A stretch of 64,000 nucleotides of DNA from an uncultured Bacilli bacterium (GTDB lineage: Bacteria; Bacillota_I; Bacilli_A; RF39; UBA660). Shown in pieces: positions 1,990 through 39,315 of the stretch. The stretch covers positions 30,000 through 93,999 of the forward strand of contig CALVSW010000004.1 of NCBI GenBank assembly GCA_944359625.1. Direction: 5' to 3'. A program made the position numbers and the translations under genes. The notes below the pieces were generated by a model that saw only the letters and a list, made by a program, of their open reading frames with translations, searched no databases and was not told the origin of the DNA. Each line of letters opens with the position of its first letter. Position 1 is the stretch's first letter.

Positions 1990-2343
1990 TTACTTATTAA
2001 TTTCTTTAACTATCCAAGTCATAATAATATCTACTATATAATCTATTTCTTCACTGCTTAGTTCTTTATTTTTAGCTATTTTATGCCATTTATAAAGACA
2101 AGAACGACAACACGTTGCCGTTGCATGTTGGGCAATAAATACGGGATGCCCTTTCATCGGTGTTTGAGCACCATCATTTAAAATAATTTTAGGAGCTAAT
2201 CTTTTATTTATAAAAGCATAAGCATGTTCTTTAATTATATCTAAACCTTTTTCTTCTATATATTTAAGCTCTTTTTCTTTTAAATGAAATTTACTTCGAA
2301 ATTTAGATAGTTCTAATTTTTTTAATATATAATCTTTATTCAT
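1990..2343 (-). CDS. DUF4186-family protein
   Basis: HPVFIAQHATATCCRSCLYKWH block is characteristic of DUF4186 proteins. Confidence 0.6.
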   Translation of the reverse strand: MNKDYILKKLELSKFRSKFHLKEKELKYIEEKGLDIIKEHAYAFINKRLAPKIILNDGAQTPMKGHPVFIAQHATATCCRSCLYKWHKIAKNKELSSEEIDYIVDIIMTWIVKEINK

Positions 2344-8148: not shown

Positions 8149-9714
8149 ATGCAGAAAATATTAATTGAAATTAAAGAAGATACTTTAGAATTTACTGGGT
8201 TAGTTAAATTAAAACCCGGTATTAGTAATTTATTAAATACAAATATTATATCTAATAACGAATTATTATTTTCTTTAAGTTATTTAAATGAAAATTATAA
8301 TATAGTTAATTTATTTATTAAAGAATTATGTCAAGATAAAAAAATTAAAAAAATACGTATTAGTGATATGTCTTTAGTAGCAGTTATTTGTCGTTTAATA
8401 AATAATGTTAATATTGAAGAAATTAATATTTTAGAAGAAGTAAATATTTCTTATGAAGCTTATGAAGCTTTAATTACGATACCATCTTTAAAAGAAGTTA
8501 GATGTTTTACAACTCCTACTTATATGTTAGATTTATTTGATAAAAAAAATATAGTAGTAGAATCTCGTCAAGAAGTATTATTTACCTCTAAATTTATGGA
8601 AGATAATAAGTTAACATCATATTCTAATATATATTATAAAGATAAAATTACTTTTAATACTATTACCGAAGAAGACTTAGAAGATTTTAAAATATTTTTA
8701 AAAATTAATAAATATTTAAAAACGATATATCTTAATACTTCTATTAAAGAATTTGTTAATAAAGTTGTTGATATATTAGTAAGTTATCGTTTAAAAAAAG
8801 TAAAAATAATAATATTAGATGATAATATTAATAAAGTTAATGCTGATAATTTAAGAGCTCTTAATAAAGAATATAGTAAGTACATTTTAATAAGAATATC
8901 TTATTCAAAAGAATATATACGTAAAAACTATTTAAAACAAATAATCTTAACTACTCTAACCTACTGTTTAATAATTATTATAGGTATCGTTACTATGACT
9001 ATTAGTTATATATTTATTAGTAATTATCAATCAGAACAAAATTTAATTGCTATTCAAGAAGAAATAAATAATATATTAAAAGATTATCCTGACCATGATG
9101 TTGTACCGCCAACATCTAATCCTGATGAAGAAATCCCAAGTATCCCCCAACTTACTCCTAATCAAGCTTATTTAAGTTTAAAAGAACTTAATAGTGATAC
9201 GGTAGGATGGTTAACTGTACCAGGTACTAATATTGATTATCCCGTTGTTAAAACTACTGATAATGAATATTATTTAACTCATAATTTTAAAAAACAAGAT
9301 GATTATAATGGTTGGGTATTTATGCATTATTTAAATAATGATACAATCTTAGATAAAAATACAATTCTTTTTGCTCATAATCGTTATTATAGTGGATTAA
9401 TGTTTGGAACTTTAAATAAAGTAAATAATAAAGATTGGTATAATAATACTAGTAATAATTTAATAACTTTTAATACGATATATAATAATTATAAATGGGA
9501 AGTCTTTTCTATTTATAGTGTTAAAGTAACTGCAGATTATTTAAAAACAATCTTTAATACTGATGAAGAATGGTTAAATTTTATTGATTTATTAAAAGGA
9601 CGCAGTGTATTTAAAAGTGATATTGAAATAGGACCAGATGATAAAATATTAACTTTATCAACATGTTTAGAAAATAATAAAAGATTAGTTGTTCATGCTG
9701 TACTAAGAAAGTAG
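8149..9714 (+). CDS. Class B sortase catalytic domain preceded by a ~260-aa cytoplasmic repeat domain and a TM helix
   Basis: C-terminal half carries VGWLTVPGTNIDYPVV...ILFAHNR...LTLSTC...RLVVHAVL, the SrtB-type His/Cys/Arg triad. A TM segment (LTYCLIIIIGIVTMTISYIFI) precedes it. N-terminal 260 aa is an L/I/N-rich repeat region with no family I recognise. Confidence 0.7.
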   Translation: MQKILIEIKEDTLEFTGLVKLKPGISNLLNTNIISNNELLFSLSYLNENYNIVNLFIKELCQDKKIKKIRISDMSLVAVICRLINNVNIEEINILEEVNISYEAYEALITIPSLKEVRCFTTPTYMLDLFDKKNIVVESRQEVLFTSKFMEDNKLTSYSNIYYKDKITFNTITEEDLEDFKIFLKINKYLKTIYLNTSIKEFVNKVVDILVSYRLKKVKIIILDDNINKVNADNLRALNKEYSKYILIRISYSKEYIRKNYLKQIILTTLTYCLIIIIGIVTMTISYIFISNYQSEQNLIAIQEEINNILKDYPDHDVVPPTSNPDEEIPSIPQLTPNQAYLSLKELNSDTVGWLTVPGTNIDYPVVKTTDNEYYLTHNFKKQDDYNGWVFMHYLNNDTILDKNTILFAHNRYYSGLMFGTLNKVNNKDWYNNTSNNLITFNTIYNNYKWEVFSIYSVKVTADYLKTIFNTDEEWLNFIDLLKGRSVFKSDIEIGPDDKILTLSTCLENNKRLVVHAVLRK

Positions 9715-9721: not shown

Positions 9722-12700
9722 ATGATAGATAATATAATTAAAGATTTAAATAGTATTATAGAATATACTATATATGAAAATATTAAATTAAATGATGAAA
9801 TGCAAGATAAGTTGAATAAAATAATTTTATATATGAATAATAGTAAAAATATAATTAAAGATTTAAATAGTATTATTGAAATTAGAAATAAAGAAAATAA
9901 AATATTTTTAGAAAGATATATAAGTATTATATTATCTAAAACTACCCTTTCTTTTTTAGATATTACTAAACTTCTTAAAACTAATATTTCCTTAAATATT
10001 AAATATATTTTATGGAATAAATTAAATAATAATAATAAAATAAATTATCTACTTAATAATAATATTGATAATGATGATATATCTTTAATAAATATATCTT
10101 TAAATAATAAAAATACTAAGTTATATCATAACATTATAAGTAATGAAGATATCTTAAAAAAATTAAAAGATCTTACTCCTAATATCAATATAATTAAGAT
10201 TGATGATTTTAATAACTTAAATATTTTAAAAGTTATGGATTCTAAAATAGTTAGTAAATATATTATGAAATATTATTATACTTATAATAACTTTAAAAAG
10301 TTAGTAAATAATAATCTAAATATTCTTAATTACGCTAGTAAATATAGTATTAAAATCGATAATATCGATAAAGAAGACTTAAATAAATTAGTATTAGAAT
10401 ACCCTCTTATATTAACTAAGTTAAATACTGATATAAGTATAAATAATTTAACTATTGATACATTAAATACTATTTTAAATAATAATCATGATTTAGATAT
10501 AAATAGTTGTATTAAAGAATTATTAACTATTATCGATAGTAATAATATCTATAAATATTTTAATTTAGATTTTATAAAACAACAAAAAGACTTTACTTTA
10601 AGTATTTATCCATTTGCTAAATTAGATAATAATTTAACTAAAGAAATTATTCATAATTATAATTTATTAAAGAAATTTACTTATAATACAATTGTTACTA
10701 TTATTAATAATTTATATATGGAAGAAGATAAAATAACGTTATTTAGAAATAATAATTTTATTGAAGAAATACCTAGTTATTATTTAGTTCAAATATTAAA
10801 TAATATGAATTTTAGAAATGTATTTAATTTATTACAAAATATTAACTTATTAAATAAGTTAGATAATTTAAATATTAAATTAAATATAGAAGATAATATT
10901 TTTATTAATAGTTATTTAGACTCTCCTACCTTAGTAAATATAAGTAATCCTAAAATGTTATATAATATGTTATTACTAAGTAATAATGTTATTAAATACT
11001 TAAATTTACCATATATAAATTCTAGATTAAATATATTAGATATAATAGATATTCTTGTTAACAAGAATATAAATATATTTAATAGTCCTTTACTAAATAA
11101 TTTTAAACCATTAGAAATTAAAAATTATATTAATAAGATGCTTAAAAAATATCATATTAATTATGATTTATTAATAAATGACTATGTCTTTAATAATATT
11201 TATAATTATAATAAAAATAAATTAACAAGTATGGATTTAGATAATCTTAAATACTTATTTGATAAAATATATACTAAAGGAATTAATACTTCTTCATGTT
11301 ATACAATAGACATTGATTCTTTTAAAAGTTTATTAAGTAGTTATATCTTATTAGGATTTGATAATACTAATAAACTATTTGAAAATGGAACTTATAATAT
11401 ATCATTTAAAAATATTAATAGTTTAAAAAATATATATGTAAAGAAATTTAAAAAAGATTTAAATTTATTAAGTGTTAAAAAAGTAAATAAATTATTTAGT
11501 AAATATTTATTAAAATTAGATAATAATGTAAAAGAAAACTTTTTAGAAAATTATTTACTAGATATCCCAGAAATAAAAAGTTATATTTTATTATTTAATA
11601 ATACTAAATATTCTAGTATTAAAGATACTATTAAATTATGTATGAATTATTTAGATTATAATAACTATAATAATGAAGTAGCTAATAATTTATTAACTAA
11701 TTTTATTAAGAATTTTAATAGTTATTATAAAGATAAATGGATATTAGAATTAAAAAATAGATTTGATAAAATAACGATAAAATCTTCTTTAATTAGTACT
11801 AATGTTTTATATCAAACAGAAAAAAATATTGATGAAGCTTATACTATTAAATTTAAATTAGATTTATTTAAAAAGTTTTTAAAATCTAATTATAAAGATA
11901 AGTATCAAGGATATTTTAATATTGATTTAAAAGATGTTATACCTAAATATTTAAAATATATAAAAACTAAAATTACTTTAGATGATATTATTAATAAAGT
12001 TTTAGTTGATACAGATATTAATAGTATTTTAAATAGTTTAAATATTAATACTCCAATATTTTATAATTTATATAAAGAAATAAATAAAGAAGAAGAATTA
12101 ATTACTAATTATAATAATATTCTTAAAAATAAATTAAAAAATATGCATAGTACTAGAGTGATTACTATTTTAAATTATATTTGTTATAATACTACTATTC
12201 CTTTTATAATAGATAATAAATTAAAAAAAGTTATTAAAAATATAAAAGATAAAATTAGTTCTTTTAATGGTAAAGTAGATGTTAATAAGTATAATAATAC
12301 TTTAGAATATACAAATATATTTACTTTTAATAATCTTAATGAATTAGAAGAATATGATTTAAAATATCAAAAGATAAATAATATTTTAGAAAAGACAAAT
12401 AAATTTATTGATAAATATATTAATACTATCGAAATAAAAGCTAAGTATAAAGATTATTATAAATACTCTTTAGATACATATTTAAGTATTATACCTGTTA
12501 ATAAAAATTATTATTCTTTAAAAAGAAGATATTTATATTTAGATGACTTTAAAAAAATATTTAATGGATATGACTTATCTATTAATCATTATTTAAGTAC
12601 TACTACTAAATCTTTCTTAGTAAATAACTTAGTATATGTAGCTTTAGGTTATGTAGATGATTTTACTAATAATTTTGGTTTAGCTTTAAATAAAATAGAT

Positions 12701-12748
12701 GATACTAAATTATATAATAATATCTATGAATTAGTAGTAAAAAACTAA
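9722..12748 (+). CDS. Large low-complexity N/K/I/L-rich hypothetical protein (1008 aa), no signal peptide
   Basis: Single continuous ORF starting 8 nt after the sortase-fusion gene. Contains internal sequence repeats (e.g. IIKDLNSIIE twice). No sorting signal at the C-terminus. Confidence 0.5.
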   Translation: MIDNIIKDLNSIIEYTIYENIKLNDEMQDKLNKIILYMNNSKNIIKDLNSIIEIRNKENKIFLERYISIILSKTTLSFLDITKLLKTNISLNIKYILWNKLNNNNKINYLLNNNIDNDDISLINISLNNKNTKLYHNIISNEDILKKLKDLTPNINIIKIDDFNNLNILKVMDSKIVSKYIMKYYYTYNNFKKLVNNNLNILNYASKYSIKIDNIDKEDLNKLVLEYPLILTKLNTDISINNLTIDTLNTILNNNHDLDINSCIKELLTIIDSNNIYKYFNLDFIKQQKDFTLSIYPFAKLDNNLTKEIIHNYNLLKKFTYNTIVTIINNLYMEEDKITLFRNNNFIEEIPSYYLVQILNNMNFRNVFNLLQNINLLNKLDNLNIKLNIEDNIFINSYLDSPTLVNISNPKMLYNMLLLSNNVIKYLNLPYINSRLNILDIIDILVNKNINIFNSPLLNNFKPLEIKNYINKMLKKYHINYDLLINDYVFNNIYNYNKNKLTSMDLDNLKYLFDKIYTKGINTSSCYTIDIDSFKSLLSSYILLGFDNTNKLFENGTYNISFKNINSLKNIYVKKFKKDLNLLSVKKVNKLFSKYLLKLDNNVKENFLENYLLDIPEIKSYILLFNNTKYSSIKDTIKLCMNYLDYNNYNNEVANNLLTNFIKNFNSYYKDKWILELKNRFDKITIKSSLISTNVLYQTEKNIDEAYTIKFKLDLFKKFLKSNYKDKYQGYFNIDLKDVIPKYLKYIKTKITLDDIINKVLVDTDINSILNSLNINTPIFYNLYKEINKEEELITNYNNILKNKLKNMHSTRVITILNYICYNTTIPFIIDNKLKKVIKNIKDKISSFNGKVDVNKYNNTLEYTNIFTFNNLNELEEYDLKYQKINNILEKTNKFIDKYINTIEIKAKYKDYYKYSLDTYLSIIPVNKNYYSLKRRYLYLDDFKKIFNGYDLSINHYLSTTTKSFLVNNLVYVALGYVDDFTNNFGLALNKIDDTKLYNNIYELVVKN

Positions 12749-14614: not shown

Positions 14615-14691
14615 GTCTCCATAGCTCAGCTGGATAGAGCATACGCCTTCTAAGCGTACGGTCGAGTGTTCGAATCACTCTGGGGACACCA
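14615..14691 (+). tRNA. tRNA-Arg (anticodon TCT)
   Basis: Cloverleaf folded by hand. Acceptor stem GTCTCCA/TGGGGAC, D-arm GCTC...GAGC, anticodon loop CT-TCT-AA, T-arm GAGTG-TTCGAAT-CACTC, encoded CCA. Confidence 0.85.
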
Positions 14692-14762: not shown

Positions 14763-15458
14763 ATGGAATTAGTTATTGAAAATTTAAAAAAGAGTTTTAA
14801 ACAAAACGAAGTATTAAAAGATATTAATTTTACGTTTCAAGAAGGTAAAATTTATGGACTTCTAGGACGTAATGGTGCTGGTAAAACTACTCTCTTTAAC
14901 TGTTTAAATGAAGACATTGATATAGATAATGGAAACTTTTATTTAGTAGATAACTCTTTAAAAAAAGATATTGAACCAAATGATATTGGTTATGTATTAT
15001 CCACTCCTAATGTACCAGAATTTTTAACAGGAAGAGAGTTTACTAAATTTTTTATAGATATTAATAAAGATCGAATTAAAGATTTAAAAACTATTGATGA
15101 ATACTTTGATTTTATGAAAATAGATGTAAATGATCGTGATAAATTACTAAAAGATTATTCTCATGGAATGAAAAATAAAATGCAAATGCTAGTTAATATT
15201 ATTGCTAGTCCTAAAATTCTATTATTTGATGAACCATTAACTTCTTTTGACGTAGTTGTATCTGAAGAAATGAAAGAAATGTTAAGAAGTATTAAAAATA
15301 ATCATATTATTATTTTTTCTACTCATATTATGGAATTAGCTTTAGATTTATGTGATGAAATTGTCATTTTAAATAAAGGTATATTAACGGAAATAAAAAA
15401 AGATAATTTAGATAATAATAATTTTAAAAATAAGATTATAGAAGCTTTAAAGGAGTAA
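14763..15458 (+). CDS. ABC transporter ATP-binding protein
   Basis: Walker A GRNGAGKTT, Walker B ILLFDEP. Signature motif present but degenerate (SHGMKNK). Confidence 0.8.
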   Translation: MELVIENLKKSFKQNEVLKDINFTFQEGKIYGLLGRNGAGKTTLFNCLNEDIDIDNGNFYLVDNSLKKDIEPNDIGYVLSTPNVPEFLTGREFTKFFIDINKDRIKDLKTIDEYFDFMKIDVNDRDKLLKDYSHGMKNKMQMLVNIIASPKILLFDEPLTSFDVVVSEEMKEMLRSIKNNHIIIFSTHIMELALDLCDEIVILNKGILTEIKKDNLDNNNFKNKIIEALKE

Positions 15459-15461
15459 GAA

Positions 15462-17030
15462 ATGATAAGCACATTTTTAAAAGCATTTAATTTAAAAAAT
15501 ACTTATCAAGTTAATAGTATTATTTATTCAATAAGTCAATTACCTTTAATAGGTAAATTATTACCTAATAGTTTATATAAAAATAAAATTATTAAAATTA
15601 TAGCTTATGTATTAAGTATTATTTGGAATATAGTTCTTATATTCTTAGGAAAATATATTTATGTACTCTTAATGATTTATATCGTAGCTTTATCTTATAA
15701 TAGTAATAATGATAATATCTTCTTAAATATTTTTATCTTTTTAAGTATAATAGGTGGTTTATTAAACACTTACTTATTAGAACCTAGTAAAGATGCATAT
15801 TATGCGATTAATATATTAAAGTTTAATGCTAAAGAATATGGATTAAGTAATTATTTTTATAAATTATTTACTACGATAATTGGTTTTTTACCATTTACTA
15901 TTTATTTTGGTTTCGAACTTAATATAAAATTATATATACTTATTTTATTACCATTTTATATAGTATCTTTAAAACTTATTGTTATGAATATTATAATTAA
16001 TAAATTTAAGAAAAAAAGAAAATTAATAAGGACAGAATATCTTAGTAATAAAGTAATATGGCCAATTATAATTCTTTGTTTAATTAGTGCTTATTTATTA
16101 CCTTTATTTAATATATGTATTAATATAAAAATATTTAATTATCTTTTTATAATTAGTTTAATATTAGGTATTTATAGTTTTCTAAAAATATATTATTTTA
16201 ATGATTATAAAAGGATGTATAATTCAATATTAACCGAAAAAAATATTGCTATTAATACAACAAATATAATCAAAGATAATAGTTTAAAACAAATTAAATT
16301 AGATAAAAATTATGTTAGTAAGAAAAATGGCTTTGCCTTTTTTCATGATTTATTTGTTAAAAGACATAAAAAAATATTAATGGATGCGATTATTAAACAG
16401 ACAATTGTTATAATATTTATAATTATATTTGCTATTTATTTAGTTACAACAAATGATTTTATAAAAGAAAATGTTCATGAATTTTTACTTGATTCCCTAC
16501 CTTATTTTACTTTTATAATGTATTGTATTAATCGAAGTTCAACCGTTACCCAAGCAATGTTTATTAATTGTGATCATAGTATGCTTACTTATCGTATTTA
16601 TAGAACGCCTCAAGTAATATTAGGAATCTTTAAAGAACGTTTAAAAACTTTAATAAAATTAAATATTATTCCGGCTTTATTTATTAGTTTAGGGCTTGAT
16701 ATATTATTATACTTATCTGGAGGAACAAATAATAATTTAAACTATTTAGTAATTATAATATCGATAAGTTCAATGGCAATATTCTTTTGTGTCCATTACT
16801 TAGTAATGTATTATATATTACAACCATATAATATAAATACCGAAATAAAAAGTAGTAGTTATAAAATTATTCAAATTGCTACTTACTTTATATGTTATTA
16901 TATGATGATGATTAAATTACCTACTTTTGTTTTTTGTTTAAATTCTATTATCTTTTGTATAGGATACTCTTTAATTTCTTTACTACTTGTCTATAAATTA
17001 GCTCCTAAAACTTTTAAATTAAAAATATAA
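15462..17030 (+). CDS. Polytopic membrane protein, putative permease partner of the upstream ABC ATPase
   Basis: Start 4 nt after the ATPase stop. 10 or more predicted TM helices. No family signature recognised. Confidence 0.5.
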   Translation: MISTFLKAFNLKNTYQVNSIIYSISQLPLIGKLLPNSLYKNKIIKIIAYVLSIIWNIVLIFLGKYIYVLLMIYIVALSYNSNNDNIFLNIFIFLSIIGGLLNTYLLEPSKDAYYAINILKFNAKEYGLSNYFYKLFTTIIGFLPFTIYFGFELNIKLYILILLPFYIVSLKLIVMNIIINKFKKKRKLIRTEYLSNKVIWPIIILCLISAYLLPLFNICINIKIFNYLFIISLILGIYSFLKIYYFNDYKRMYNSILTEKNIAINTTNIIKDNSLKQIKLDKNYVSKKNGFAFFHDLFVKRHKKILMDAIIKQTIVIIFIIIFAIYLVTTNDFIKENVHEFLLDSLPYFTFIMYCINRSSTVTQAMFINCDHSMLTYRIYRTPQVILGIFKERLKTLIKLNIIPALFISLGLDILLYLSGGTNNNLNYLVIIISISSMAIFFCVHYLVMYYILQPYNINTEIKSSSYKIIQIATYFICYYMMMIKLPTFVFCLNSIIFCIGYSLISLLLVYKLAPKTFKLKI

Positions 17031-17031: not shown

Positions 17032-17107
17032 AATGCACCATCATAGTGCAAAACTAGGTCTTAAAATAGTAAAAATGCACAATATTTTCAAAATATTGTG
17101 CATTTTT
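17032..17107. repeat. ~75-bp direct repeat, copy 1, containing two hairpins
   Basis: atgcaccatcatagtgcaaaactaggtcttaaaatagtaaaaatgcacaatattttCaaaatattgtgcattttta. Internal palindromes TGCAC...GTGCA and AAAAATGCACAATATTTT/AAAATATTGTGCATTTTT. Confidence 0.8.
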
Positions 17108-17145
17108 ATATTTATTTTGTTATAATCTAAATAGAGGTGAACAAA

Positions 17146-18213
17146 ATGGAAACAGTAAAAATTAATGAATTACCTATTAATTATAATATGGATAAAGAGT
17201 TATTACGCTTACTTGCAGATGCTAATGAAATATATGGTGAATATAAATCAAAATTAAAAAATAGTAAAATAAATTCTAAACTTTTTTTAGATTCTCTTAT
17301 TTTAAAAGAAAGTTTTAAATCTACTCAAATTGAAGGAACTCAAATTTCTCAGGATGATATATATTATTTAAAATATATGCCTAAAACTGACGAAAACTTA
17401 GAAATTCAAAATTTAAAAATGGTAATTGATTATGCTAAAAATTATTTAAAAGAAAATAATAAAATCAATTTAGAATTTATAAATAAAATTCATAAAATTC
17501 TATTAAATAGTGTTCGTGGTAATGAAAAAGAACCTGGTAAAATACGTAGTATTCAAAATTGGATTGGACCAAGAGGATGTACAATTGAGGAAGCTAGTTA
17601 TATTCCTCCATCACCAGAAAAAGTTCCTATTTTATTAGATAATTTATTTAAATACATGAATGATTTATATGCGGATCCCCTATTTATAAATATGGCTATT
17701 TCCCATTGTCAATTTGAATCAATTCATGCTTATAGAGATGGTAATGGAAGATTAGGGAGAGCTTTAATCCCAATCCAATTGGCAGCTTTAACAAATGAAG
17801 AACCTATTTTATTCTTATCTGAAGTTATAGAACTTTATAAACCAACTTATTATCGTTTATTAAACGAAAGCCGTAACGGAAATATATTAGGATTTATTAA
17901 ATTCTTTTTACAATGTATTATTGAACAATGTAATAGTTATGTAAATAAAATAAATCGTATTGAACAAATATATGAAAAGAATAACGAAAAAATAAAAATA
18001 TTAAAAAGTAGTGCTGTATATCAAATAATGCCTATTATTACTAAATTAGTAATTTTTACAAAAAAGGAGATAGAAGAAGAATCTAAGTTATCAAGGAATA
18101 CCGTTTCTAGAATTATTGATAAATTAGTAGAACTTAATATTTTAGTTCCTGATACTAATCATATAAAACTTGGTTATCGTTATCAAGAAATATATAACGT
18201 ATTTATTAAATAA
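17146..18213 (+). CDS. Fic-family protein (AMPylator type) with N-terminal inhibitory motif, i.e. class II Fic
   Basis: HAYRDGNGRLGRAL fits the Fic motif HxFx(D/E)GNGRxxR. Upstream STQIEG fits the [ST]xxxE[GN] inhibitory helix motif. Likely start ATG 17146 (METVKINEL) with AGAGGTG RBS; the ORF-track GTG at 17137 is less likely. Confidence 0.8.
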   Translation: METVKINELPINYNMDKELLRLLADANEIYGEYKSKLKNSKINSKLFLDSLILKESFKSTQIEGTQISQDDIYYLKYMPKTDENLEIQNLKMVIDYAKNYLKENNKINLEFINKIHKILLNSVRGNEKEPGKIRSIQNWIGPRGCTIEEASYIPPSPEKVPILLDNLFKYMNDLYADPLFINMAISHCQFESIHAYRDGNGRLGRALIPIQLAALTNEEPILFLSEVIELYKPTYYRLLNESRNGNILGFIKFFLQCIIEQCNSYVNKINRIEQIYEKNNEKIKILKSSAVYQIMPIITKLVIFTKKEIEEESKLSRNTVSRIIDKLVELNILVPDTNHIKLGYRYQEIYNVFIK

Positions 18214-18288
18214 TGCACCATCATAGTGCAAAACTAGGTCTTAAAATAGTAAAAATGCACAATATTTTGAAAATATTGTGCATTTTTT
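18212..18288. repeat. ~75-bp direct repeat, copy 2 (one mismatch to copy 1)
   Basis: Same sequence as 17032-17107 except C to G in the hairpin loop centre. Begins at the fic stop codon. Confidence 0.8.
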
Positions 18289-18874
18289 AAACAGTAACCT
18301 CTTCTTTAACTGTATTTTCTTTATATATTGATTGAAATAAATCAGTTTCATCATTATCTACTTCATCACTAGGAAGCTTAGGTAAATCATTAATTGTTGC
18401 TAAACCAAAGTAATCAAGAAAATCACTAGTTGTTCCATATAAATTAGGACGACCAGGCATTGTTGATTTTCCAACTTCTTTTACTAAACCTTTAGCTACT
18501 AATTTTCTAATTACCCAAGAATTATTAACACCACGCATTTCATCTACTTCTACACGGGTAATTGGCTGATGATAAGCAATAATGGCTAAAGTTTCTAAAG
18601 CTGATTGGGATAAAGTATTAGTTTCTGGGTTAACTATAAGTTTTTCATAATAAGCTTTATGTTCTTTTTTTGTTGTTAATTTAAAAGCATTACCTAAATA
18701 ACTAATTCTTATTCCTCTACTAGTATCTTCATAAGACTTCTTTAATTCCATTAATAATTCTTTTGCATCTTCCATACCTATTTCTAAAATATTACATATT
18801 TGGTCTAAAGTTAATCCTTCATCACCAACAACAAATAATAAACCTTCTAAAACAGCAATTTTATTATCCTTCAT
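18287..18874 (-). CDS. scpB: Segregation and condensation protein B
   Basis: Length, ScpB-like N-terminus (LEGLLFVVGDEGLTL) and position overlapping scpA. Confidence 0.8.
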   Translation of the reverse strand: MKDNKIAVLEGLLFVVGDEGLTLDQICNILEIGMEDAKELLMELKKSYEDTSRGIRISYLGNAFKLTTKKEHKAYYEKLIVNPETNTLSQSALETLAIIAYHQPITRVEVDEMRGVNNSWVIRKLVAKGLVKEVGKSTMPGRPNLYGTTSDFLDYFGLATINDLPKLPSDEVDNDETDLFQSIYKENTVKEEVTV

Positions 18875-19622
18875 TTAAAACACCTTCTACTATAATAGGA
18901 CTATAACTATTTTCCTGAAATATCTTTAATTCTTTATTTTTACTCATTTGTAAGATAGCTAAAAAAGTAACAACAATATATTCTCTATTAACAATATCAA
19001 ATAAACTAAAAAATTCTAATTTCTTATTAACTTTAATAAGTTCTTTTATAGAATTTATACGATCTTCAACACTTAATTCTTTTTTAGTAATCTTAGTATT
19101 AAGAGGCTTTAAAAATTTAGCTCTTTTTTGATATTCTAATAAAGCTTGATATAAATCATCAGTTGTAAATAAACCTTTAATAAGTTTATTATCTTTAGAA
19201 TAAACTTTTAAATTTTCTGGTACTTTAGTATATACTTCACTTCTTTTTTCTTCTAAATCTTTAAAAGTATTAGTAATATTTTTAATTTCTTCATACTCAA
19301 TTAATTTATTTCTTAAATCCTCTTCACTATTAATACTAAATTCTTCTTCACTACTAACCTCTTCATCTGGTCTATTTACTAATAAACGTGCTTTTAAATT
19401 AACTAATTCAGCAGCCATTACTAAATAACTTGAGGCAATATCAATATTTAAAGATTCAAAATTATTGATAATATCTAAATACTGATTAATTATCTCACTG
19501 ATATTAATTTCATAAATATCCATTTTTGATTGTTTAACTAAATGTAAAAGAAGATCTAGAGGACCTTCAAAATCATTTATATGAAAATTATAATTCATAA
19601 TTTTCCCCCTTATTAATGACAA
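18864..19622 (-). CDS. scpA: Segregation and condensation protein A
   Basis: FEGPLDLLLHLVKQSKMDIYEINISEI is the typical ScpA N-terminus. Confidence 0.8.
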   Translation of the reverse strand: MSLIRGKIMNYNFHINDFEGPLDLLLHLVKQSKMDIYEINISEIINQYLDIINNFESLNIDIASSYLVMAAELVNLKARLLVNRPDEEVSSEEEFSINSEEDLRNKLIEYEEIKNITNTFKDLEEKRSEVYTKVPENLKVYSKDNKLIKGLFTTDDLYQALLEYQKRAKFLKPLNTKITKKELSVEDRINSIKELIKVNKKLEFFSLFDIVNREYIVVTFLAILQMSKNKELKIFQENSYSPIIVEGVLNEG

Positions 19623-20941
19623 GTAAAACCAAGTGATTCTATTTCATAATTTAGAACATCTTTACTAGTATCCTTTTTATAATAAAATGGATCTTCAGTA
19701 GTTAAATCAACATCAGTCGTATAATTAATATTAGCTGTATAAGTAAAACCAGTATCAATCGCAAGAACACTAGCAGTTGCTACATCACTTTCATCAATTT
19801 TCATAGCCTTAGCTTGATAATTTAGGAAATTAACTGTATAGCTATTATCATCAACACGTGTATAATTATAAACATCTTTAATATTAACTAATTTATTATC
19901 TTGAAATGTATAAGTTAGTGTACGATTAGGAGCTTCACATGTAATTACGGTTCCTAATTCTGAAATTGGATAATCAGATACGCTTCTATTTATTACTTGA
20001 AAGGAATTTGCATTATTATAAACAGTTTCATTAATTGGGCTTTGTAATGTAGTATTAGCACCACCACCTAAATTATCAATGTTAATTAATGCCCGACCTA
20101 AATAAGTATTATCTTGATAAAAATCTATATAAATACGATTAGTAGCAAAATCAAAGCTATTTTGAATATCAGTATTTTTAAGTGTGTAATTAAAATAATA
20201 GATATTATCAGCTAATGTTTTAGAAACATTACTAATTTCTAAATTTTCATATTTAGCAATAATAGTAGGATCTATTAAATATGTTTGAATAACTGGTTCT
20301 TCATCCACTGGTTCTTCATCTTCAGAATCATCTGGTTGTGGTGGTGTTGGTATTTCTTCAAAAACATCTGAATTATCACTAATATGTAATTTATCTAATA
20401 AATCACTAAAATATGGTGTTATTTCAGGAACAAAAAAGATTGTACCGATTAAAACTGTAAATAAAATTAACATAGCAACAGGACTTTTTTGTTTATCTTT
20501 CTTAATTGTTCCAATACTTTTACTTTCTAAAATAGAAACTTCTGGAGTAGATGGTGGAACACTTTGTTGTTGGGAATTTGCTACCTGCTGTTGATTTACA
20601 CTATTTTGATTTACTGCTTGGCCAGCTTGTATTGTAGATTGGGTTGAAGCAGCCATTCCATTACTTAAAGTATTATGTTCATTTAATTGCTTATTAACAT
20701 CTATTTGATTAAAAAAAGTATTATGAGCTCCCTCTTGTTGTGTACTTTTTAAAGTAGGTATATCAGGTTGCTCTAAAACTTGCTTTTTTTCTTCACCAAG
20801 ATTACCAACTATTTTAGGTGTATCTAAGGCCTCAATTGGTTTATTATTTTCTTCTTGAACTTCTTGCTTTTCTTTTGGTGTCTCTATTTTACGACCCCAT
20901 ATATCTGTATTTATATTATCACTAGGATTATTGTTATTCAT
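19613..20941 (-). CDS. Membrane-anchored hypothetical protein (442 aa)
   Basis: Q/N-rich N-terminal region, single TM (VAMLILFTVLIGTIFFV) and a large extracytoplasmic domain. Confidence 0.45.
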   Translation of the reverse strand: MNNNNPSDNINTDIWGRKIETPKEKQEVQEENNKPIEALDTPKIVGNLGEEKKQVLEQPDIPTLKSTQQEGAHNTFFNQIDVNKQLNEHNTLSNGMAASTQSTIQAGQAVNQNSVNQQQVANSQQQSVPPSTPEVSILESKSIGTIKKDKQKSPVAMLILFTVLIGTIFFVPEITPYFSDLLDKLHISDNSDVFEEIPTPPQPDDSEDEEPVDEEPVIQTYLIDPTIIAKYENLEISNVSKTLADNIYYFNYTLKNTDIQNSFDFATNRIYIDFYQDNTYLGRALINIDNLGGGANTTLQSPINETVYNNANSFQVINRSVSDYPISELGTVITCEAPNRTLTYTFQDNKLVNIKDVYNYTRVDDNSYTVNFLNYQAKAMKIDESDVATASVLAIDTGFTYTANINYTTDVDLTTEDPFYYKKDTSKDVLNYEIESLGFTCH

Positions 20942-22831: not shown

Positions 22832-23473
22832 TTAATGTAAATGTTGATATAAATCATTTAAACTTTTTTTCTCATACCTTGATACCATTACTTGTGTAAG
22901 TTTTAATTTCTTAGCAACTTCTTGTTGGGTATAATCATTAAAATATCGTAATTTTATAATACTTTTATAAGGTTCTTCTAAATTATCTACTGACCATTTT
23001 AAATCTAAATAATCTAGTTTATTTTCTTTATCATCTTTAATCGTATTATATAAAGAACTATCATTATCTGATTCACTATCTAAACTTAAAATACTATATG
23101 TAGAACTTATAGCCATATTTATTAAATTAGGATCAATATTTAAATACTTAGCTATTTCTAAAGTAGTTGGTACTTTTCCTAAGCTTTGGGTTAAATAAAC
23201 ATTAGTCTTTTCAATTAACTTAGTTAATTTTAATAAATCTCTATTTTGTTTTAAAGCTTTAGCAGATAACATATAATTATACATTTCGCCAAATATATAT
23301 TTATAGGCATAAGAAGAAAACTTTGTTTTACCATCACTTTTATAATTCTTATAAGCTTGAATTAATCCTAATACACCTGCTTGATATAAATCATTATATT
23401 CTACACCATAAAAATTACTAGCAATACTCTTTATTAAAGGTTTAAATTCTTCGATAGGTATATCAATATTCAT
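22832..23473 (-). CDS. Sigma-70 family sigma factor (sporulation-type, SigF/SigG-like by position)
   Basis: Region 2 (YNDLYQAGVLGLIQAYKNY) and region 4 HTH (YTQQEVAKKLKLTQVMVSRYEKKSL). Probable start ATG 23473 (MNIDIPIEE) with AGGAGG RBS; the ORF-track 5' extension to 23536 is likely spurious. Sits directly upstream of spoVAC. Confidence 0.65.
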   Translation of the reverse strand: MNIDIPIEEFKPLIKSIASNFYGVEYNDLYQAGVLGLIQAYKNYKSDGKTKFSSYAYKYIFGEMYNYMLSAKALKQNRDLLKLTKLIEKTNVYLTQSLGKVPTTLEIAKYLNIDPNLINMAISSTYSILSLDSESDNDSSLYNTIKDDKENKLDYLDLKWSVDNLEEPYKSIIKLRYFNDYTQQEVAKKLKLTQVMVSRYEKKSLNDLYQHLH

Positions 23474-23567
23474 GATATCTATCCTCCTTACCCGTAATAT
23501 AGAATACTTTTTTTTAAATTTAAACAATTTCGACAAAACTTCTTAATATATCTTTATTAATTGACAA

Positions 23568-24743
23568 TTAAAACTTTGTTCCTTTGACACCTTTAGTACC
23601 ATTAAAGTTACTTAAAATATTACTATCAAAAGAATTTATTTTTTTCTGCTTATATTGATAATTACGAATTCCAATTTTAATTAATTCATCTAATAATTCC
23701 GAATACTTTTTATTACTTAGTTCCCATAAATAGAAAGATAAAGACCCAGGACAAGTATTAATTTCATTAATATAAACTTTTTTAATTTCATTATCGATTA
23801 AAAAATCTATTCTAACTACTCCCGAATTTCCTAATGCTAAAAAAGCTTTTTTAGCAATATCAACTATTTCTTCTTGCATTTTTTTAGAAATATCAGCAGG
23901 AATTTTTCTAGAACTACCAGACATACCCTTAGTTTTATTACCATTTAAATATTTATCATCAAAAGTTAATATATGATGACTATTATTTACCTCTTCAATT
24001 AAAGAAGTATCAATACTTTGATAATTTCCTAAAACAGATATATTAACTTCTTTTAAATCAGTAAGACATTTTTCTACTAATATCTTTTTATCATAATTAA
24101 TAGCTTCTTTAATAGCTTTTTGTAGTTCATCTTCATTTTTAGCTACGGCAATACCAATACTACTACCTAGATTAGCTGGTTTAACAATTACTGGATAACC
24201 TAATTGATTAATCTTTTTTAAATATTCTTCGCTATCATTATTATATTCATAATCATAAAACCATATATATGGTAATATCGGTAATTTATTAACTTCATAA
24301 ATAGCTTTTTGTGCAACTTTATCTTGTCCTAAAGCACTTGCTAAAACATCACTACCAACATAAGGAACATTAATTGTTTCTAAATAACCTTGAAGTTTAC
24401 CATCTTCAACATTAGTACCATGGACAATAGGAAATATTATATCAATTTCATATTTATATCGTTTAAATAAACCAGTTGTTTGTAAGTAAAACTTATTTTC
24501 TTTATTTACTAAAATACATTCATTAGTAAATCTTTTTAATTCATCCATATCTTTATAAATATTAATATCTTTTAATATTTCACCTGTATGCCATACTCCC
24601 TTTTTATCTATATAAATAGGTATTATTTCATACTTATTTAAATCCATATTCTTGATTGCTTGAAGTGCTGAAATAATACTTACTTCATGTTCAACACTAA
24701 CACCACCAAATAATACACCAACTTTTATTTTCATAATAATCAC
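23568..24743 (-). CDS. ddl: D-alanine--D-alanine ligase
   Basis: N-terminal KVGVLFGGVSVEHEVSIISA and ATP-grasp body. Adjacent to murF as in many Firmicutes. Confidence 0.85.
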   Translation of the reverse strand: MIIMKIKVGVLFGGVSVEHEVSIISALQAIKNMDLNKYEIIPIYIDKKGVWHTGEILKDINIYKDMDELKRFTNECILVNKENKFYLQTTGLFKRYKYEIDIIFPIVHGTNVEDGKLQGYLETINVPYVGSDVLASALGQDKVAQKAIYEVNKLPILPYIWFYDYEYNNDSEEYLKKINQLGYPVIVKPANLGSSIGIAVAKNEDELQKAIKEAINYDKKILVEKCLTDLKEVNISVLGNYQSIDTSLIEEVNNSHHILTFDDKYLNGNKTKGMSGSSRKIPADISKKMQEEIVDIAKKAFLALGNSGVVRIDFLIDNEIKKVYINEINTCPGSLSFYLWELSNKKYSELLDELIKIGIRNYQYKQKKINSFDSNILSNFNGTKGVKGTKF

Positions 24744-36864: not shown

Positions 36865-39237
36865 TCACCCACACAATCCTGGTAAATATGTTAATGGATC
36901 TACTCGACTTCCATTTACAAACACTTCAAAATGCAAATGGTTTCCAGTAGCAGCACCAGTTTGACCTACATAACCGATTAAAGTGCCCGCAGTAACTGTA
37001 GAACCAATTTGTAAATCTGAAGGCTTTATCATATGAGCATAGAGAGTTTCAATCCCATTATTTCCAGCTATTCGAACATAATACCCATAACCATCAGAAT
37101 CATTACCATTTATCGTAACTGTACCATCATGTGCAGCATATATTGGTGTATTAGCTGGTCTAGCTATGTCGATGCCATTATGATTTTTTTGAACACCACT
37201 TATTGGATGAACACGATTGCCATACATCGAAGAACAATTACCCGTAGTTTCTAATGGATACATTAATCCATACGAATTAACTTCCCCATTTAAATTATAA
37301 TTCTTTAAACTTGAAGATAATACTGCATTATCATAATAGAAATTTAATATTTCATTATAAAGTTTTCCTTGTACGGTTGACATATAATAAGCACCATACT
37401 GACTCATTCCACGGCCATGACCACCATCACCATCAGTTCCACAAGGATGTTCTAAATACGATGTTCCACTCCATTTTGGAACATTTTCATAAGCCCAAGC
37501 AATTGGTATAGCTTGATGTTTTTGGGCTAAATAATAGTTAGTGCTATCTTTAGATTCATAGCAAAAAGCATCATATTCAGTTGAAACTAAATTACCGGCA
37601 CCATCAGTCATTATTTGACCAGTAGTTTGCGATACAGCATCAATAATTTGTTGATTAGTTGTTGGACGGAATGCTTGCGTATTAGTACTACTTGTAATAT
37701 AGCATACACCATCAGTATTTTGCGATCTTGTAAATAAATACGTACGTGCTGCTACAGAGAAAGCTTTAAAAGTTTCAGTATCTTGAAATCCTCCTACTTC
37801 ATGGCTAATAACACCAGCTACATAATCATCTAAAGTATAAGTTCCCATGTAATCACCAGATGTAACAGTAACATTATCACAGCCATTAACATCTACATAT
37901 GATAGTTCTGGAGAAGGCTGATACATATCACAAATTGGAAATATTTCAAATGGCTCTAATTCTAATTTTTCTACTTTAAATAATTTTTTAATAGTTTCAT
38001 CATAGTTAGTTCCCTGATTCAAAGCACTTAAGTCTAATTCTATTTTAGGAGCATAACCGATAATTATCTCACTTTTACCTAAAGATACAGCATTAGTAAT
38101 ATTATCTTGACTATCATCTGTTGATTCAGTATTATTTTCAGGAATATTTAATAAAGTATATTTATTGGTATCTTTTAATGTACAAGTACTTTCACCACTA
38201 TTAATAGACGAATTAATTAATAAATCAGAATTTACTACCACTCCTAAAGCATGATAATCTTCAGCATTACTAGTATATGAGCCAAAATAATAATTAACAG
38301 CACCTGCTAAATATTCATCAATTGTATAAGTACCTGCAGAGGGACCATCTGGTATAATAACGGTATTACAAGTAGGATTATTAACACAGTTAACATCAGC
38401 ATCTTCATTATAATCATAAATGTTATTTGAAACTATTCCAGATATTATAAAAATTATAATTAATAAAGCAAGTATTATTACTATAAATAACATAATAAAT
38501 GGGATTAAGGGAGCAATAACAGAAAGTGTTAACTTAAATGAAGTAGATCTTCCTAATAATATATTTTTTGTAAATTTTTTATTTTCATTTGTAGGTTCAT
38601 CATTATTATCAGATTTTTCTTTTTGAGATTCATTATTACTTTTAGAATTTTTATCTTTTAAAGGTTCTGAACTATCATCTTGTTTATCATCAAAACTTTC
38701 TTCTTCTGGTAAAGAATCTATAGTTTGATTAAACTTATTTTGTATATTTTTGCCATAATTCTTTATTTTATTTCTAGTTTTTCCTACCAAAGAAGCAGCT
38801 GTTCCTAACATTCCTAATTTGCTTTTAGGATTTAAAATGTTAGATAATTTTTCTTTATTTTCTTTTGTTTCTTCACTTACTTTTGGTGAACTATTTTTGC
38901 TTTCTTTTTCGTCTTCATTTACTTTTGGTATAGTGTCTTTATTTTCTTTTTCTAAAGATTTTTTTTGTGATTTATTAAGTGCTTTCCCACCATTTTCAAG
39001 CATTTTATCAACAGCTGGATTATCTAAAGTTTTTTTTACAGCCTGTCCTGCTGCAGCTCCAGCAGGTCCTCCAATTGCACCACCAATTACTGGAGCAGCA
39101 TTTTTTATTACTTTACGCCCAAGCTTTGATTGCAAACCTTTACTAGCTAAATTGCCAACCATATTTTTATTATAGGAAATCGGTTGCTTTGGATTTTGCT
39201 GAGGTTCTGTAGAAGAGTTCTTTTTTTCTTCGTCCAT
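36865..39237 (-). CDS. Bifunctional cell-wall hydrolase: SpoIID/LytB-like lytic transglycosylase domain plus C-terminal M23 (LytM) peptidase; functional VirB1 analogue
   Basis: GGHGRGMSQYGAYYMS is the SpoIID-family signature. C-terminus HNGIDIA...GNHLHFEV is the M23 HxxxD/HxH motif. Long charged cytoplasmic N-tail and one TM, as in PrgK/TcpG-type T4SS hydrolases. Confidence 0.75.
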   Translation of the reverse strand: MDEEKKNSSTEPQQNPKQPISYNKNMVGNLASKGLQSKLGRKVIKNAAPVIGGAIGGPAGAAAGQAVKKTLDNPAVDKMLENGGKALNKSQKKSLEKENKDTIPKVNEDEKESKNSSPKVSEETKENKEKLSNILNPKSKLGMLGTAASLVGKTRNKIKNYGKNIQNKFNQTIDSLPEEESFDDKQDDSSEPLKDKNSKSNNESQKEKSDNNDEPTNENKKFTKNILLGRSTSFKLTLSVIAPLIPFIMLFIVIILALLIIIFIISGIVSNNIYDYNEDADVNCVNNPTCNTVIIPDGPSAGTYTIDEYLAGAVNYYFGSYTSNAEDYHALGVVVNSDLLINSSINSGESTCTLKDTNKYTLLNIPENNTESTDDSQDNITNAVSLGKSEIIIGYAPKIELDLSALNQGTNYDETIKKLFKVEKLELEPFEIFPICDMYQPSPELSYVDVNGCDNVTVTSGDYMGTYTLDDYVAGVISHEVGGFQDTETFKAFSVAARTYLFTRSQNTDGVCYITSSTNTQAFRPTTNQQIIDAVSQTTGQIMTDGAGNLVSTEYDAFCYESKDSTNYYLAQKHQAIPIAWAYENVPKWSGTSYLEHPCGTDGDGGHGRGMSQYGAYYMSTVQGKLYNEILNFYYDNAVLSSSLKNYNLNGEVNSYGLMYPLETTGNCSSMYGNRVHPISGVQKNHNGIDIARPANTPIYAAHDGTVTINGNDSDGYGYYVRIAGNNGIETLYAHMIKPSDLQIGSTVTAGTLIGYVGQTGAATGNHLHFEVFVNGSRVDPLTYLPGLCG

Positions 39238-39312: not shown

Positions 39313-39315
39313 ATT

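Follow-up and report, generated by a model that had tools for sequence, protein, structure and literature searches.

A gene for a Fic-domain protein in the genome of an uncultured Bacilli bacterium is bracketed by two nearly identical 76-nucleotide (nt) direct repeats, each made of two palindromes at a set distance. In every full-length homologue examined that is at least 70% identical, and across unrelated genomic contexts, the same module is found immediately upstream of the fic promoter; comparison of these loci indicates that the repeats are copies of a fic-specific cis-acting module and not part of an insertion site. We propose, with about even confidence and partly by inference, that the module acts as a bidirectional terminator and as an operator for the winged helix at the C terminus of Fic, and that its two copies recombine to delete the gene.

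A Fic gene between two copies of a palindromic module

The window, which is the whole 64,000-nt stretch of DNA analysed here, contains the two repeats (DR1 and DR2) at a period of 1,180 nt (Table 1). They are identical at 75 of 76 positions. The original prediction had described two near-identical copies with one base difference at the apex of a hairpin; this holds, with the second copy ending at 18287 and not, as given there, at 18288. A 56-nt core of the repeat matched twice in the window and never in 100 shuffles, and a pattern for the 37-nt palindrome also matched twice (0 expected). Each copy holds the near-palindrome TGCACCATCATAGTGCA (hp1) and the perfect palindrome AAAAATGCACAATATTTT-N-AAAATATTGTGCATTTTT (hp2), giving an architecture of a 17-bp TGCAC-N7-GTGCA palindrome, an A-rich spacer of 23–25 nt and an A-tract/TGCAC-N17-GTGCA/T-tract hairpin. 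The sole mismatch, C at 17089 and G at 18269, is the central base of hp2, so the hairpins of DR1 and DR2 are exact reverse complements of each other.

Table 1 Features of the fic locus, in positions of the window
Feature	Position	Strand	Basis
tRNA-Arg(TCT), upstream landmark	14615–14691	+	ARAGORN
ABC transporter pair: ATPase (14763–15458) and 522-aa permease-like protein (15462–17030)	14763–17030	+	Pfam ABC_tran
Module copy 1 (DR1): hp1, spacer, hp2	17032–17107	+	
hp1 of DR1, 17-bp near-palindrome TGCACCATCATAGTGCA (TGCAC-N7-GTGCA)	17034–17050	strandless	
hp2 of DR1, A5-TGCACAATATTTT-C-AAAATATTGTGCA-T5, bidirectional terminator-like palindrome	17071–17107	strandless	
Putative extended −10 element of fic, TGTTATAAT	17118–17126	+	read from sequence
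Ribosome-binding site (RBS) of fic, GAGGTG	17134–17139	+	read from sequence
fic, 355-aa class II Fic, SoFic type	17146–18213	+	Pfam Fic_N and Fic; PADLOC SoFic model
Inhibitory motif STQIEG, residues 59–64	17320–17337	+	translation; invariant in homologues
Catalytic motif HAYRDGNGRLGR, residues 194–205	17725–17760	+	translation
C-terminal winged-helix region (predicted)	18016–18183	+	AF2 model, 7cb8 alignment
Predicted recognition helix, residues 317–329	18094–18132	+	AF2 model
Module copy 2 (DR2): hp1 (18214–18230), hp2 (18251–18287)	18212–18287	+	
scpB, convergent neighbour	18287–18874	−	Pfam, NCBIfam
scpA, beyond scpB	18864–19622		Pfam, NCBIfam

The repeats fit closely between the genes. 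DR1 begins 1 nt beyond the stop codon of the permease (17028–17030), in line with the earlier description of an upstream operon that ends just before the first copy. The TAA stop codon of fic (18211–18213), which had been placed precisely at the start of the second copy, instead runs into it, and the last base of DR2 is covered by the stop codon of scpB (18287–18289, minus strand), such that DR2 overlaps a stop codon at either end; fic and scpB are 73 nt apart. The only open reading frame between the two direct repeats is fic itself; a transposase, terminal inverted repeats and a short target-site duplication were not found, and we rejected an insertion sequence (IS) or transposon.

The surroundings vary between related genomes. 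The tRNA-Arg(TCT) gene is also found upstream of the fic locus in a sister species (L144), a congener (L151) and another genus (L011/L012). The ABC transporter pair is missing in the sister species and, as read from the sequence, is reduced in the congener to an 86-aa remnant that fuses N- and C-terminal parts. The fic locus is a variable spot downstream of tRNA-Arg; no att-type repeat of the 3′ end of this tRNA was detected between positions 14300 and 19000 of the window.

Translation of fic likely starts at the ATG at 17146 and not at the GTG at 17137, which matches the 355-aa form in the databases. A simple promoter scan did not list the fic promoter because it has no good −35 element; equivalents of its −10 element (TGnTAnAAT) and RBS (AGGTGA) are conserved in all homologous loci. 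The right half-site of hp2 overlaps the −35 position of fic in the window, and does so likewise in a distant clade (L204).

The earlier assignment of the protein to class II of the Fic family stands: it matches Pfam Fic_N (E = 1.1e-12) and Fic (E = 2.7e-17) and carries the inhibitory motif. The catalytic motif, which had been called intact, departs from the consensus HxFx(D/E)GNGRxxR in having Y for F; the catalytic H, D, G, N, G, R and R are invariant among homologues. The PADLOC SoFic model matches at full length (residues 7–351, E = 2e-86), and the NCBIfam SoFic equivalog model NF046030 scores 86.8 bits against a cut-off of 550, so the protein is a distant family relative of SoFic and not an equivalog. 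‘Sofic’ proteins of class II of the Fic family have been reported as a defence system, and the gene here is a candidate SoFic-type anti-phage defence gene. Relatives of known structure are 7cb8 (aligned as far as residue 339), 3eqx (SoFic) and 7xux (CccR). In an AF2 model, residues 291–350 have the H-H-H-β-hairpin topology of a winged helix–turn–helix (wHTH) with pLDDT values of 75–86; the model as a whole is poor (mean pLDDT of 55), and the C-terminal domain alone was used.

Sequence analysis and folding recovered both hairpins in each copy, including the bidirectional terminator-like palindrome of the original prediction. hp2 folds at −20 kcal/mol (z = −7.8) with a stem of 17–19 bp flanked by T5 and A5, which is a stable stem–loop followed by a T/U tract, as in an intrinsic terminator, and it scored as terminator-like on both strands. 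The scan found 5 terminator-like sites where 0.4 were expected. As an RNA hairpin, hp1 is weak (−5.1 kcal/mol). An Rfam search returned no family, only hairpin noise below threshold. Inspection led us to reject an attenuator or antiterminator, for which the alternative pairing extends over just 5 bp, and, against the consensus sequences, a CodY, Rex or CIRCE box.

The module among relatives of fic

We surveyed metagenomes with the Fic protein, not the motif, as the seed. Homologues with the module occur in settings that include sites behind tRNA-Arg, tRNA-Leu (3 anticodons), tRNA-Thr (2 anticodons) and tmRNA. The idea that the repeat is a generic intergenic terminator that fic happened to enter is not borne out, as the module accompanies fic into other species and contexts. 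A second copy directly after the fic stop codon was present in approximately 12 of around 32 lineages; about 60% of lineages are without it. The two-sided layout turns up at scattered points of the Fic tree and also in the outgroups, and is therefore ancestral. One locus (L051) has an odd arrangement, with an inverted 5′ fragment of fic after the module; an intron suspected there had no Rfam match.

All homologues that are at least 70% identical have TGCAC/GTGCA half-sites at a distance of 10–120 nt upstream of the −10 element. Across 53 distinct elements, hp1 is conserved and shares its half-site with hp2, and the hp1–hp2 spacing stays at 23–25 nt while the spacer sequence varies. The outer TGCACA/TGTGCA bases are invariant; inner stem positions are paired in just 74–92% of elements, and the changes are mostly uncompensated. 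This pattern suggests that the module is conserved for its sequence rather than its structure.

More distant Fic clades carry other palindromes: TGCACTA/TAGTGCA with a 64%-identical Fic (L200), in which the interior of hp2 is not self-complementary; GTATCATAAATT...AATTTATGATAC with a 55%-identical Fic (L204–206); and ATCACTAT in L224. In both L200 and L204–206, palindromes stand upstream and downstream of fic. In the clades of 64%, 60% and 55% identity, which have different palindromes, the predicted recognition helix and wing differ as well, a co-variation that is confounded with overall divergence and would also arise from drift combined with homogenization within the locus.

Both copies could be strong bidirectional intrinsic terminators that insulate fic, the product of an ancient duplication whose copies gene conversion has kept similar, with no protein that recognizes them. 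We consider it unlikely that this is the whole of their function. hp2 is an excellent terminator-like hairpin with its A-tract and T-tract; some compensated stem changes (CGCACAAT...ATTGTGCG in L171 and L097) show that selection acts on the stem as well; the concerted evolution of the copies is demonstrated (see below); and the distant L204 clade has a single terminator-like palindrome at each end of the gene. However, termination would not account for hp1, which is weak, has no T-tract and is conserved all the same, nor for the fixed spacing between hp1 and hp2, the invariance across genera of the outer 6 nt next to tolerated mismatches in the inner stem, or the retention of half-sites in L200. 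Homologous Fic–wHTH proteins are, moreover, known to bind their own promoters. The module resembles the bidirectional (Rho-independent) terminators of convergent genes in that a perfect hairpin, preceded by an A-tract and followed by a T-tract, lies between fic and scpB; it differs from ordinary examples in that its sequence, beyond its structure, is kept across genera, and in having a second palindrome at a fixed distance and a duplicate upstream of the same gene.

We therefore favour a module with a terminator and an operator function. Judging from its structure, the large palindrome would be a strong intrinsic terminator in both directions that insulates the gene of a potentially toxic AMPylase from read-through out of the upstream ABC operon and the convergent scpAB operon. 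The TGCAC half-sites, at fixed spacings and next to or over the −35 position, would be operators for the winged helix of a dimeric Fic, leading to autorepression. This step draws on comparative patterns and on analogy with two proteins. CccR of Yersinia pseudotuberculosis is likewise a class II Fic with an S/TxxxEG inhibitory motif and a C-terminal HTH, acts as a dimer, and is related to the window protein at a detectable level of sequence similarity (structure 7XUX); the CccR dimer acts as a repressor at its own promoter, where its operator is a pair of inverted repeats, AGATAATCAT-N26-ATGATAATCT, with an unusually long 26-bp spacer (PMC9755527). SoFic of Shewanella oneidensis, from a single-gene anti-phage family, has the same domain order, and its dimer binds the stretch of 100 bp that precedes its own start codon (bioRxiv 10.64898/2026.07.09.737422). 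As with these operators, inverted-repeat half-sites occur at the promoter of fic itself.

The differences are also clear. CccR has low sequence identity to the window protein and is a type VI secretion (T6SS) effector, of which the window Fic bears no sign; the half-sites here are of the TGCAC type and are candidate binding sites, and the module consists of two palindromes at a fixed spacing, doubles as a terminator and is repeated downstream of the gene. The window fic has no small downstream antitoxin ORF like AS1 of SoFic, and we found no description of flanking repeats around SoFic in the SoFic literature examined. It is unusual for an operator to lie downstream of its gene. The end of hp2 in most species is 5–6 nt upstream of the conserved −35 element (TTTACT), not over the core promoter, and this position is not classic for a repressor.

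Single-copy sites and the probable loss of fic

The original prediction called for a search for empty sites, and these exist. A conspecific contig (L161) has one module and no fic between the same permease and scpB, with flanks 98.4% and 99.4% identical to those of the window, and a congener (L148–L151) has the same single module without fic. scpB served as the anchor in this search; permease homologues (57–60% identity) were not syntenic, had no scpB neighbour and were uninformative. Taken alone, a single-copy site is compatible both with deletion and with a state before insertion. At the same site, the sister species L144 has repeat–fic–repeat, also with a period of 1,180 nt, and its fic (91.6% nt identity) has diverged like its neighbours. 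Because the sister species shares this arrangement, the single-copy sites are most simply explained as crossover deletions. The exact window Fic protein was found in one context only across 104 data blocks, and together these observations turn the direction first suggested, insertion of a cassette, around: loss of fic is more likely than its insertion. L161 could also reflect an assembler that skipped a repeat-bounded loop; many fic contigs are around 1.2 kb in length, which indicates that assemblers struggle at this locus.

The two copies within a locus are more alike than their counterparts between species, with 1 of 75 (window) and 4 of 75 (L144) differences between paralogous copies and 7–8 of 75 between orthologous copies. 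Among 28 strains, markers have been exchanged between DR1 and DR2, and the central base of hp2 toggles between C and G, as expected for inversion of a palindrome loop or gene conversion, a comparison that covers the dynamics of the repeats and not their function. Comparison across strains and species thus shows, at the level of sequence, that DR1 and DR2 evolve in concert. With one module at each end of fic, the two would recombine; gene conversion and loop flip-flop, as shown comparatively, would keep them nearly identical, and a crossover between them would delete fic precisely and leave one module, the end-state seen in the conspecific contig and the congener.

Occupied and single-copy sites would also both exist if the module were an att-like site (compare integron attC, Xer/dif and CIME) at which a recombinase encoded elsewhere excises module, promoter and fic as a circle of 1,180 bp, which it then integrates at solo modules. 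hp1 resembles the core of a tyrosine-recombinase site, with inverted arms on either side of a 7-bp centre, which the two copies of a locus carry in identical or inverted form; one strain (L164) has the DR1 and DR2 markers swapped, as excision followed by reintegration would give; solo modules occur in L127, L080 and L093; fic adjoins seven different tRNA or tmRNA genes; and in the tmRNA clade the 3′ end of the tmRNA is duplicated so that it flanks fic on both sides, which resembles an att signature. Nevertheless, we judge a site-specific mobile cassette of this kind to be quite unlikely. In none of the loci is a recombinase linked to fic; the exact Fic protein keeps to its single context, and where other exact proteins have variable flanks, this is explained by unrelated islands or by IS elements in the adjacent tRNA. 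The module brackets no other cargo gene, and cassette arrays are absent. The fic gene has a promoter of its own, and its divergence between sister species tracks that of its neighbours.

As in integrons, a single gene is bounded by similar palindromic sites in occupied and empty states. By contrast, an adjacent integrase (intI), an array and the R′′-L′′/L′-R′ asymmetry and extrahelical bases of attC were all absent at the window locus, where the palindromes are perfect and the gene, unlike a promoterless cassette, has an extended −10 promoter; the exact protein in one context gives no sign of recent movement. Integrase-less, CIME-like islets offer a second likeness, as fic lies directly 3′ of a tRNA or tmRNA gene in many species. 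Flanking repeats of a tRNA or tmRNA 3′ end, which are absent between positions 14300 and 19000 of the window, were found in L184, L190 and L202; the repeat in the window is instead a palindromic module, and the ABC operon separates tRNA-Arg from fic. Viral contigs contributed one tmRNA-linked fic and one solo hp2. Phage homologues of Fic were only around 30% identical (Streptococcus Javan ‘MloA’ and Brochothrix BL3 gp26) and did not have the flanking-repeat layout.

A further explanation, in line with the one first suggested, is that a circle or fragment carrying fic entered an existing permease–scpB terminator by Campbell-type homologous recombination, duplicating a sequence that serves termination only. 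The single-copy sites in L161 and L151 are exactly the empty site that this predicts, and the repeats abut both neighbouring stop codons. We nonetheless regard such a scar as improbable. The module accompanies fic at other sites in other genera and is therefore not the native permease/scpB terminator; fic is vertically inherited in the sister species with the same layout and period; the two-sided layout recurs in outgroup Fic clades; and more distant relatives that carry scpB (L152–156) are without the module there.

We can virtually dismiss a dispersed REP-, BIME- or MITE-like family, put forward earlier as an alternative, that flanks fic by chance: the element is indeed short, palindromic and intergenic, with the few solo copies in other genomes noted above, but the 64-kb window holds two copies, both at fic, the related loci examined that lack fic have none, terminal inverted repeats and target-site duplication are absent, and each metagenome-assembled genome (MAG) matched in a scan of a genome collection gave one locus among the matches listed. 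The pattern used in that DNA scan, AAATGCACAN{10,16}TGTGCATTT, was too permissive; the matches were mostly chance terminators in unrelated phyla, and approximately 15 of 119 loci were relevant among those listed.

Possible consequences for defence-gene regulation and loss

The operator and recombination functions could be joined in a self-contained excisable cassette, in which Fic dimers bridge the operators at the two ends into a repression loop of around 1.2 kb with the toxin gene inside it, and the paired sites stimulate excision of the 1,180-bp circle and its re-insertion in a reversible manner, through site-specific recombination or with help from the bound protein. We consider this extension improbable. 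If true, it would provide a means of acquiring and discarding a costly abortive-infection gene and would represent an undescribed cassette system in low-GC Firmicutes.

The combined terminator–operator module that we favour bears on the regulation of the family more directly. Fic proteins with a C-terminal winged helix have recently been shown to bind their own promoters, and the SoFic defence family has so far been without a defined operator. The locus described here and around 60 related loci provide a conserved candidate operator, with TGCAC half-sites, fixed spacings and clade-specific variants, in a two-sided layout that we did not find reported in the literature examined. Autoregulation of a defence toxin would be directly testable with a 75-bp probe. 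There is also a practical warning, as genes bounded by repeats fragment assemblies or are skipped by assemblers. The locus would document a simple route to the clean loss of a single defence gene, by crossover between its own flanking regulatory modules, and population polymorphism can be seen in gut metagenomes.

A two-palindrome module at each end of fic

The window is AT-rich (GC content of ~22–25%) and carries spoVA, scpAB, sufSU and ddl, which identify its source as a spore-forming Firmicute; the contigs that match it are gut-metagenome assemblies of uncultured organisms. The 76-nt direct repeats on either side of fic, DR1 and DR2, have a period of 1180 nt and one mismatch, at the centre of hp2, the second of two palindromes in each copy. 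As only this base differs, the hp2 elements of DR1 and DR2 are exact reverse complements of one another. hp2 has a folding energy of -20 kcal/mol (z = -7.8) and is called as a terminator on both strands; the hp1 hairpin is weak (-5.1 kcal/mol). The bracketing of fic by repeats noted in the original prediction is real, and more structured than that prediction could show.

Features of the window and of related loci or contigs (L-numbers) from other strains, species and metagenomes
Source	Position	Strand	Feature
Window		minus	sufU, sufS; first in the layout, before tRNA-Arg(TCT)
Window	8149-9714		521-aa protein with C-terminal sortase domain
Window	9722-12748		1008-aa ORF directly after the 521-aa protein; no Pfam match; within a 13.7% GC stretch (10001-12000)
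Window	14615-14691		tRNA-Arg(TCT)
Window	17028-17030 (permease stop)		ABC ATPase and 522-aa permease-like gene, then DR1
Window	17032-17107		DR1; hp2 central base C (17089)
Window	17118-17126		extended -10 element TGTTATAAT between DR1 and fic, RBS after
Window	17146-18213		fic, between the DR1-side promoter and DR2
Window	18212-18287		DR2; hp2 central base G (18269)
Window	each copy		hp1, palindrome: TGCACCATCATAGTGCA
Window	each copy		hp2, perfect palindrome: A5-TGCACAATATTTT-N-AAAATATTGTGCA-T5
Window		minus	scpB; the final base of DR2 falls within its stop codon
Window	19613-20941	minus	442-aa protein, no Pfam family; syntenic in every relative, with spoVAE on one side and scpA on the other; 73% identity in sister species, 471-513 aa in remoter relatives
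L151	1551-1811	minus	86-aa ORF; by inspection, in-frame fusion of ABC ATPase N-terminus (MELIIENFKK...) and permease C-terminus (...VYKLAPKTFK)
L127	699-769, 1430-1510		solo modules, fic absent; tmRNA 3' fragment 700 nt upstream
L080	2190-2262		solo module, fic absent
L093	~2165-2260		solo module, fic absent
L226	12877-12905		one solo hp2, predicted viral contig
L184	68-173/1384-1488		direct repeats, tmRNA 3' end plus small hairpin
L190	2832-2872/4159-4199		direct repeats, tmRNA 3' end plus small hairpin
L202	2839-2866/4153-4180		direct repeats, tmRNA 3' end plus small hairpin
L013	721-2001		integrase island inserted in tRNA-Arg(TCT), at its anticodon loop; this tRNA lies next to fic
L160	1429-3151		GC-rich ParA/ParB element inside tRNA-Leu near fic
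L015-L017	from 6239		IS605-type tnpB, starting ~160 nt after fic; contigs diverge downstream ('Candidatus Onthousia faecavium'-like)
L051 (MAG contig CALVHJ010000049.1)	~270-1055	reverse	tRNA-Leu seemingly split past the anticodon region; insert of ~700 nt encodes HNH endonuclease
L051	~1083-1260	reverse	tRNA-Leu, normal hp1-hp2 module, inverted 45-nt fic 5' fragment (RBS, ATG and 8 codons), unrelated gene
MK448993.1 (Javan616)	39209-40339		phage Fic homologue annotated 'MloA'
HM144386.1 (BL3)	23362-24489		phage Fic homologue, gp26

Comparison across genomes assigns the repeat to fic rather than to the insertion site. A metagenome survey seeded on the Fic protein returned 55 loci, in which the module precedes the start codon of every full-length homologue with ≥70% identity by no more than ~120 nt and is followed by a conserved -35-like TTTACT, an extended -10 element and AGGTGA. 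Where Fic is 70–80% identical, the module precedes fic in widely differing neighbourhoods (tRNA-Arg/radical SAM in L011-14, tRNA-Leu in L015 and L157, tRNA-Thr, tmRNA or no tRNA), and a second copy lies 0–25 nt past the stop codon in ~12 of ~32 lineages. The alternative of a dispersed REP/MITE-like family is rejected because the module tracks fic, is absent from the fic-less loci compared (permease-homologue loci and distant scpB loci) and occupies one locus per relevant MAG among the genome-scan matches listed; within the 64 kb, the 56-nt core of the repeat and its 37-nt palindrome have no further copies, with none expected by chance.

In 53 distinct elements the hp1–hp2 spacer is 23–25 nt long and variable in sequence. 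The half-site is common to hp1 and hp2, with core spacings of N7 and N17, and the outer bases of TGCACA/TGTGCA are invariant among the elements compared, with five of these six positions fixed by the extraction pattern and only the sixth an independent observation. Inner stem positions of hp2 are paired in just 74–92% of elements, and changes are mostly uncompensated, with a few compensated outer changes (CGCACAAT...ATTGTGCG). Remoter Fic clades keep the architecture with a changed palindrome: L200 (Fic 64% identity) has TGCACTA/TAGTGCA on both sides and an hp2 interior that is not self-complementary, L204-206 (55%) have GTATCATAAATT..AATTTATGATAC upstream, overlapping the -35, and directly past the stop codon, and the palindrome of L224 is ATCACTAT. 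The predicted recognition helix and wing of Fic differ in these clades. Because two-sided modules are scattered across the Fic tree and found in outgroups, this layout is probably ancestral and was lost repeatedly. Among the solo elements (L127, L080, L093 and L226), hp1 is decayed in some modules.

Exchange between the copies and probable loss of fic

In the sister species (ScpB 89%; L144-147), tRNA-Arg is followed by ~100 nt, DR–fic–DR and scpB, with the same 1180-nt period and the ABC genes absent. Its fic (94% amino acid and 91.6% nucleotide identity to that of the window) has diverged in line with the flanking genes (77–93% nucleotide identity), so the arrangement is vertically inherited. 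Copies within a genome differ at 1 of 75 (window) or 4 of 75 (L144) positions and orthologous copies at 7–8 of 75; this greater similarity within genomes is concerted evolution. Among 28 conspecific contigs, the hp2 apex base and a spacer SNP shift between DR1 and DR2 (apex G/G in four strains, C/C in two, markers swapped in one), a pattern that gene conversion and flip-flopping of the palindrome loop could produce. DR1 and DR2 are homogenised by recombination. Strains in which the hp2 centre toggles between C and G are L164-L167, L239, L241 and L243; the hp1 centre likewise toggles (G/C) in L172, L176 and L195 when the upstream copy is compared with the downstream one, and both patterns resemble the outcome of gene conversion or of a flip-flop of the loop.

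A crossover between DR1 and DR2 would delete fic precisely, leaving one module. Empty sites of this form exist. On a conspecific contig, L161, whose flanks share 98.4% and 99.4% identity with the window, the permease gene is followed by TAA-AA, one module and scpB, and fic is absent; four contigs of a congener (ScpB 84%; L148-151) carry tRNA-Arg, the 86-aa ORF, one module and scpB. In this ORF the ABC operon is seen in decay; the window has the operon intact, and the sister species lacks it. Repeat-bounded loops confuse assemblers, and as many fic contigs are ~1.2 kb long and one (L007) ends within hp2, L161 taken by itself could result from a collapse during assembly; with four independent contigs from the congener, the solo state is credible. 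The original prediction had proposed that a fic cassette was inserted by recombination at a repeated intergenic element. Empty sites speak for that proposal, since they would formally represent the pre-insertion state as well as the exact expected crossover products, whereas their phylogenetic distribution favours loss. Putative deletion of fic through its repeats is well supported by structure and comparison.

Recent cassette mobility is not supported by the contexts compared, because the exact window Fic has one and the same context in all 104 data blocks, and where other exact Fic proteins vary in their flanks, this stems from unrelated islands or IS elements within the neighbouring tRNA. 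A dedicated site-specific cassette mechanism for fic is a minority possibility.

The Fic protein and its candidate operator

Window Fic has Fic_N and Fic domains, the inhibitory motif STQIEG and the catalytic motif HAYRDGNGRLGR, in which Y replaces the consensus F. It is a full-length match to the PADLOC SoFic model (E = 2e-86) and scores far under the cut-off of the NCBIfam SoFic equivalog; related solved structures include 7cb8, SoFic (3eqx) and CccR (7xux). Its AlphaFold model is poor overall, with a confident C-terminal winged helix (residues 291–350, pLDDT 75–86) and a recognition helix predicted at ~residues 317–329. Class II 'Sofic' proteins are reported single-gene anti-phage systems with toxic activity (PMC12249575). 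Distant phage homologues (~30% identity) occupy positions typical for accessory genes, 'MloA' as the final gene in Streptococcus prophages and gp26 near the integrase in Brochothrix phage BL3; the flanking module is absent around both.

CccR, a Fic protein with an HTH at its C-terminus, binds AGATAATCAT-N26-ATGATAATCT in its own promoter as a dimer and represses it (PMC9755527), and a SoFic dimer binds the 100-bp stretch that precedes its own start codon (bioRxiv 10.64898/2026.07.09.737422). Given such binding, the TGCAC half-sites are good candidates for the operator of window Fic. The repeats would constitute fic's own operator/terminator-like module, one at each end; we infer the operator function by reasoning from these relatives, and the putative terminator function is well supported by structure and comparison.

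Long-term movement of fic

At many loci, the 12 nt past hp2 (ATTTACTTTTAT) match fic codons 4–7 in reverse complement, which, with the inverted fic fragment of L051, hints at inversion between short inverted repeats. The tRNA-Leu insert on the same contig may be a group I intron that carries a homing endonuclease; it has no Rfam match at the gathering threshold.

Across the loci compared, seven different tRNA/tmRNA genes have fic immediately 3' of them. In the tmRNA clade, a duplication that covers the final 40–107 nt of tmRNA brackets the module, promoter and fic together, with no integrase at the loci that have these repeats (L184, L190 and L202), which reads as an att-like signature without integrase; the same tmRNA 3' fragment follows fic even where fic now lies behind tRNA-Leu (L157 and L175). 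Defence genes commonly move as cargo of integrative elements, and over the long term fic, too, has clearly moved in this way.
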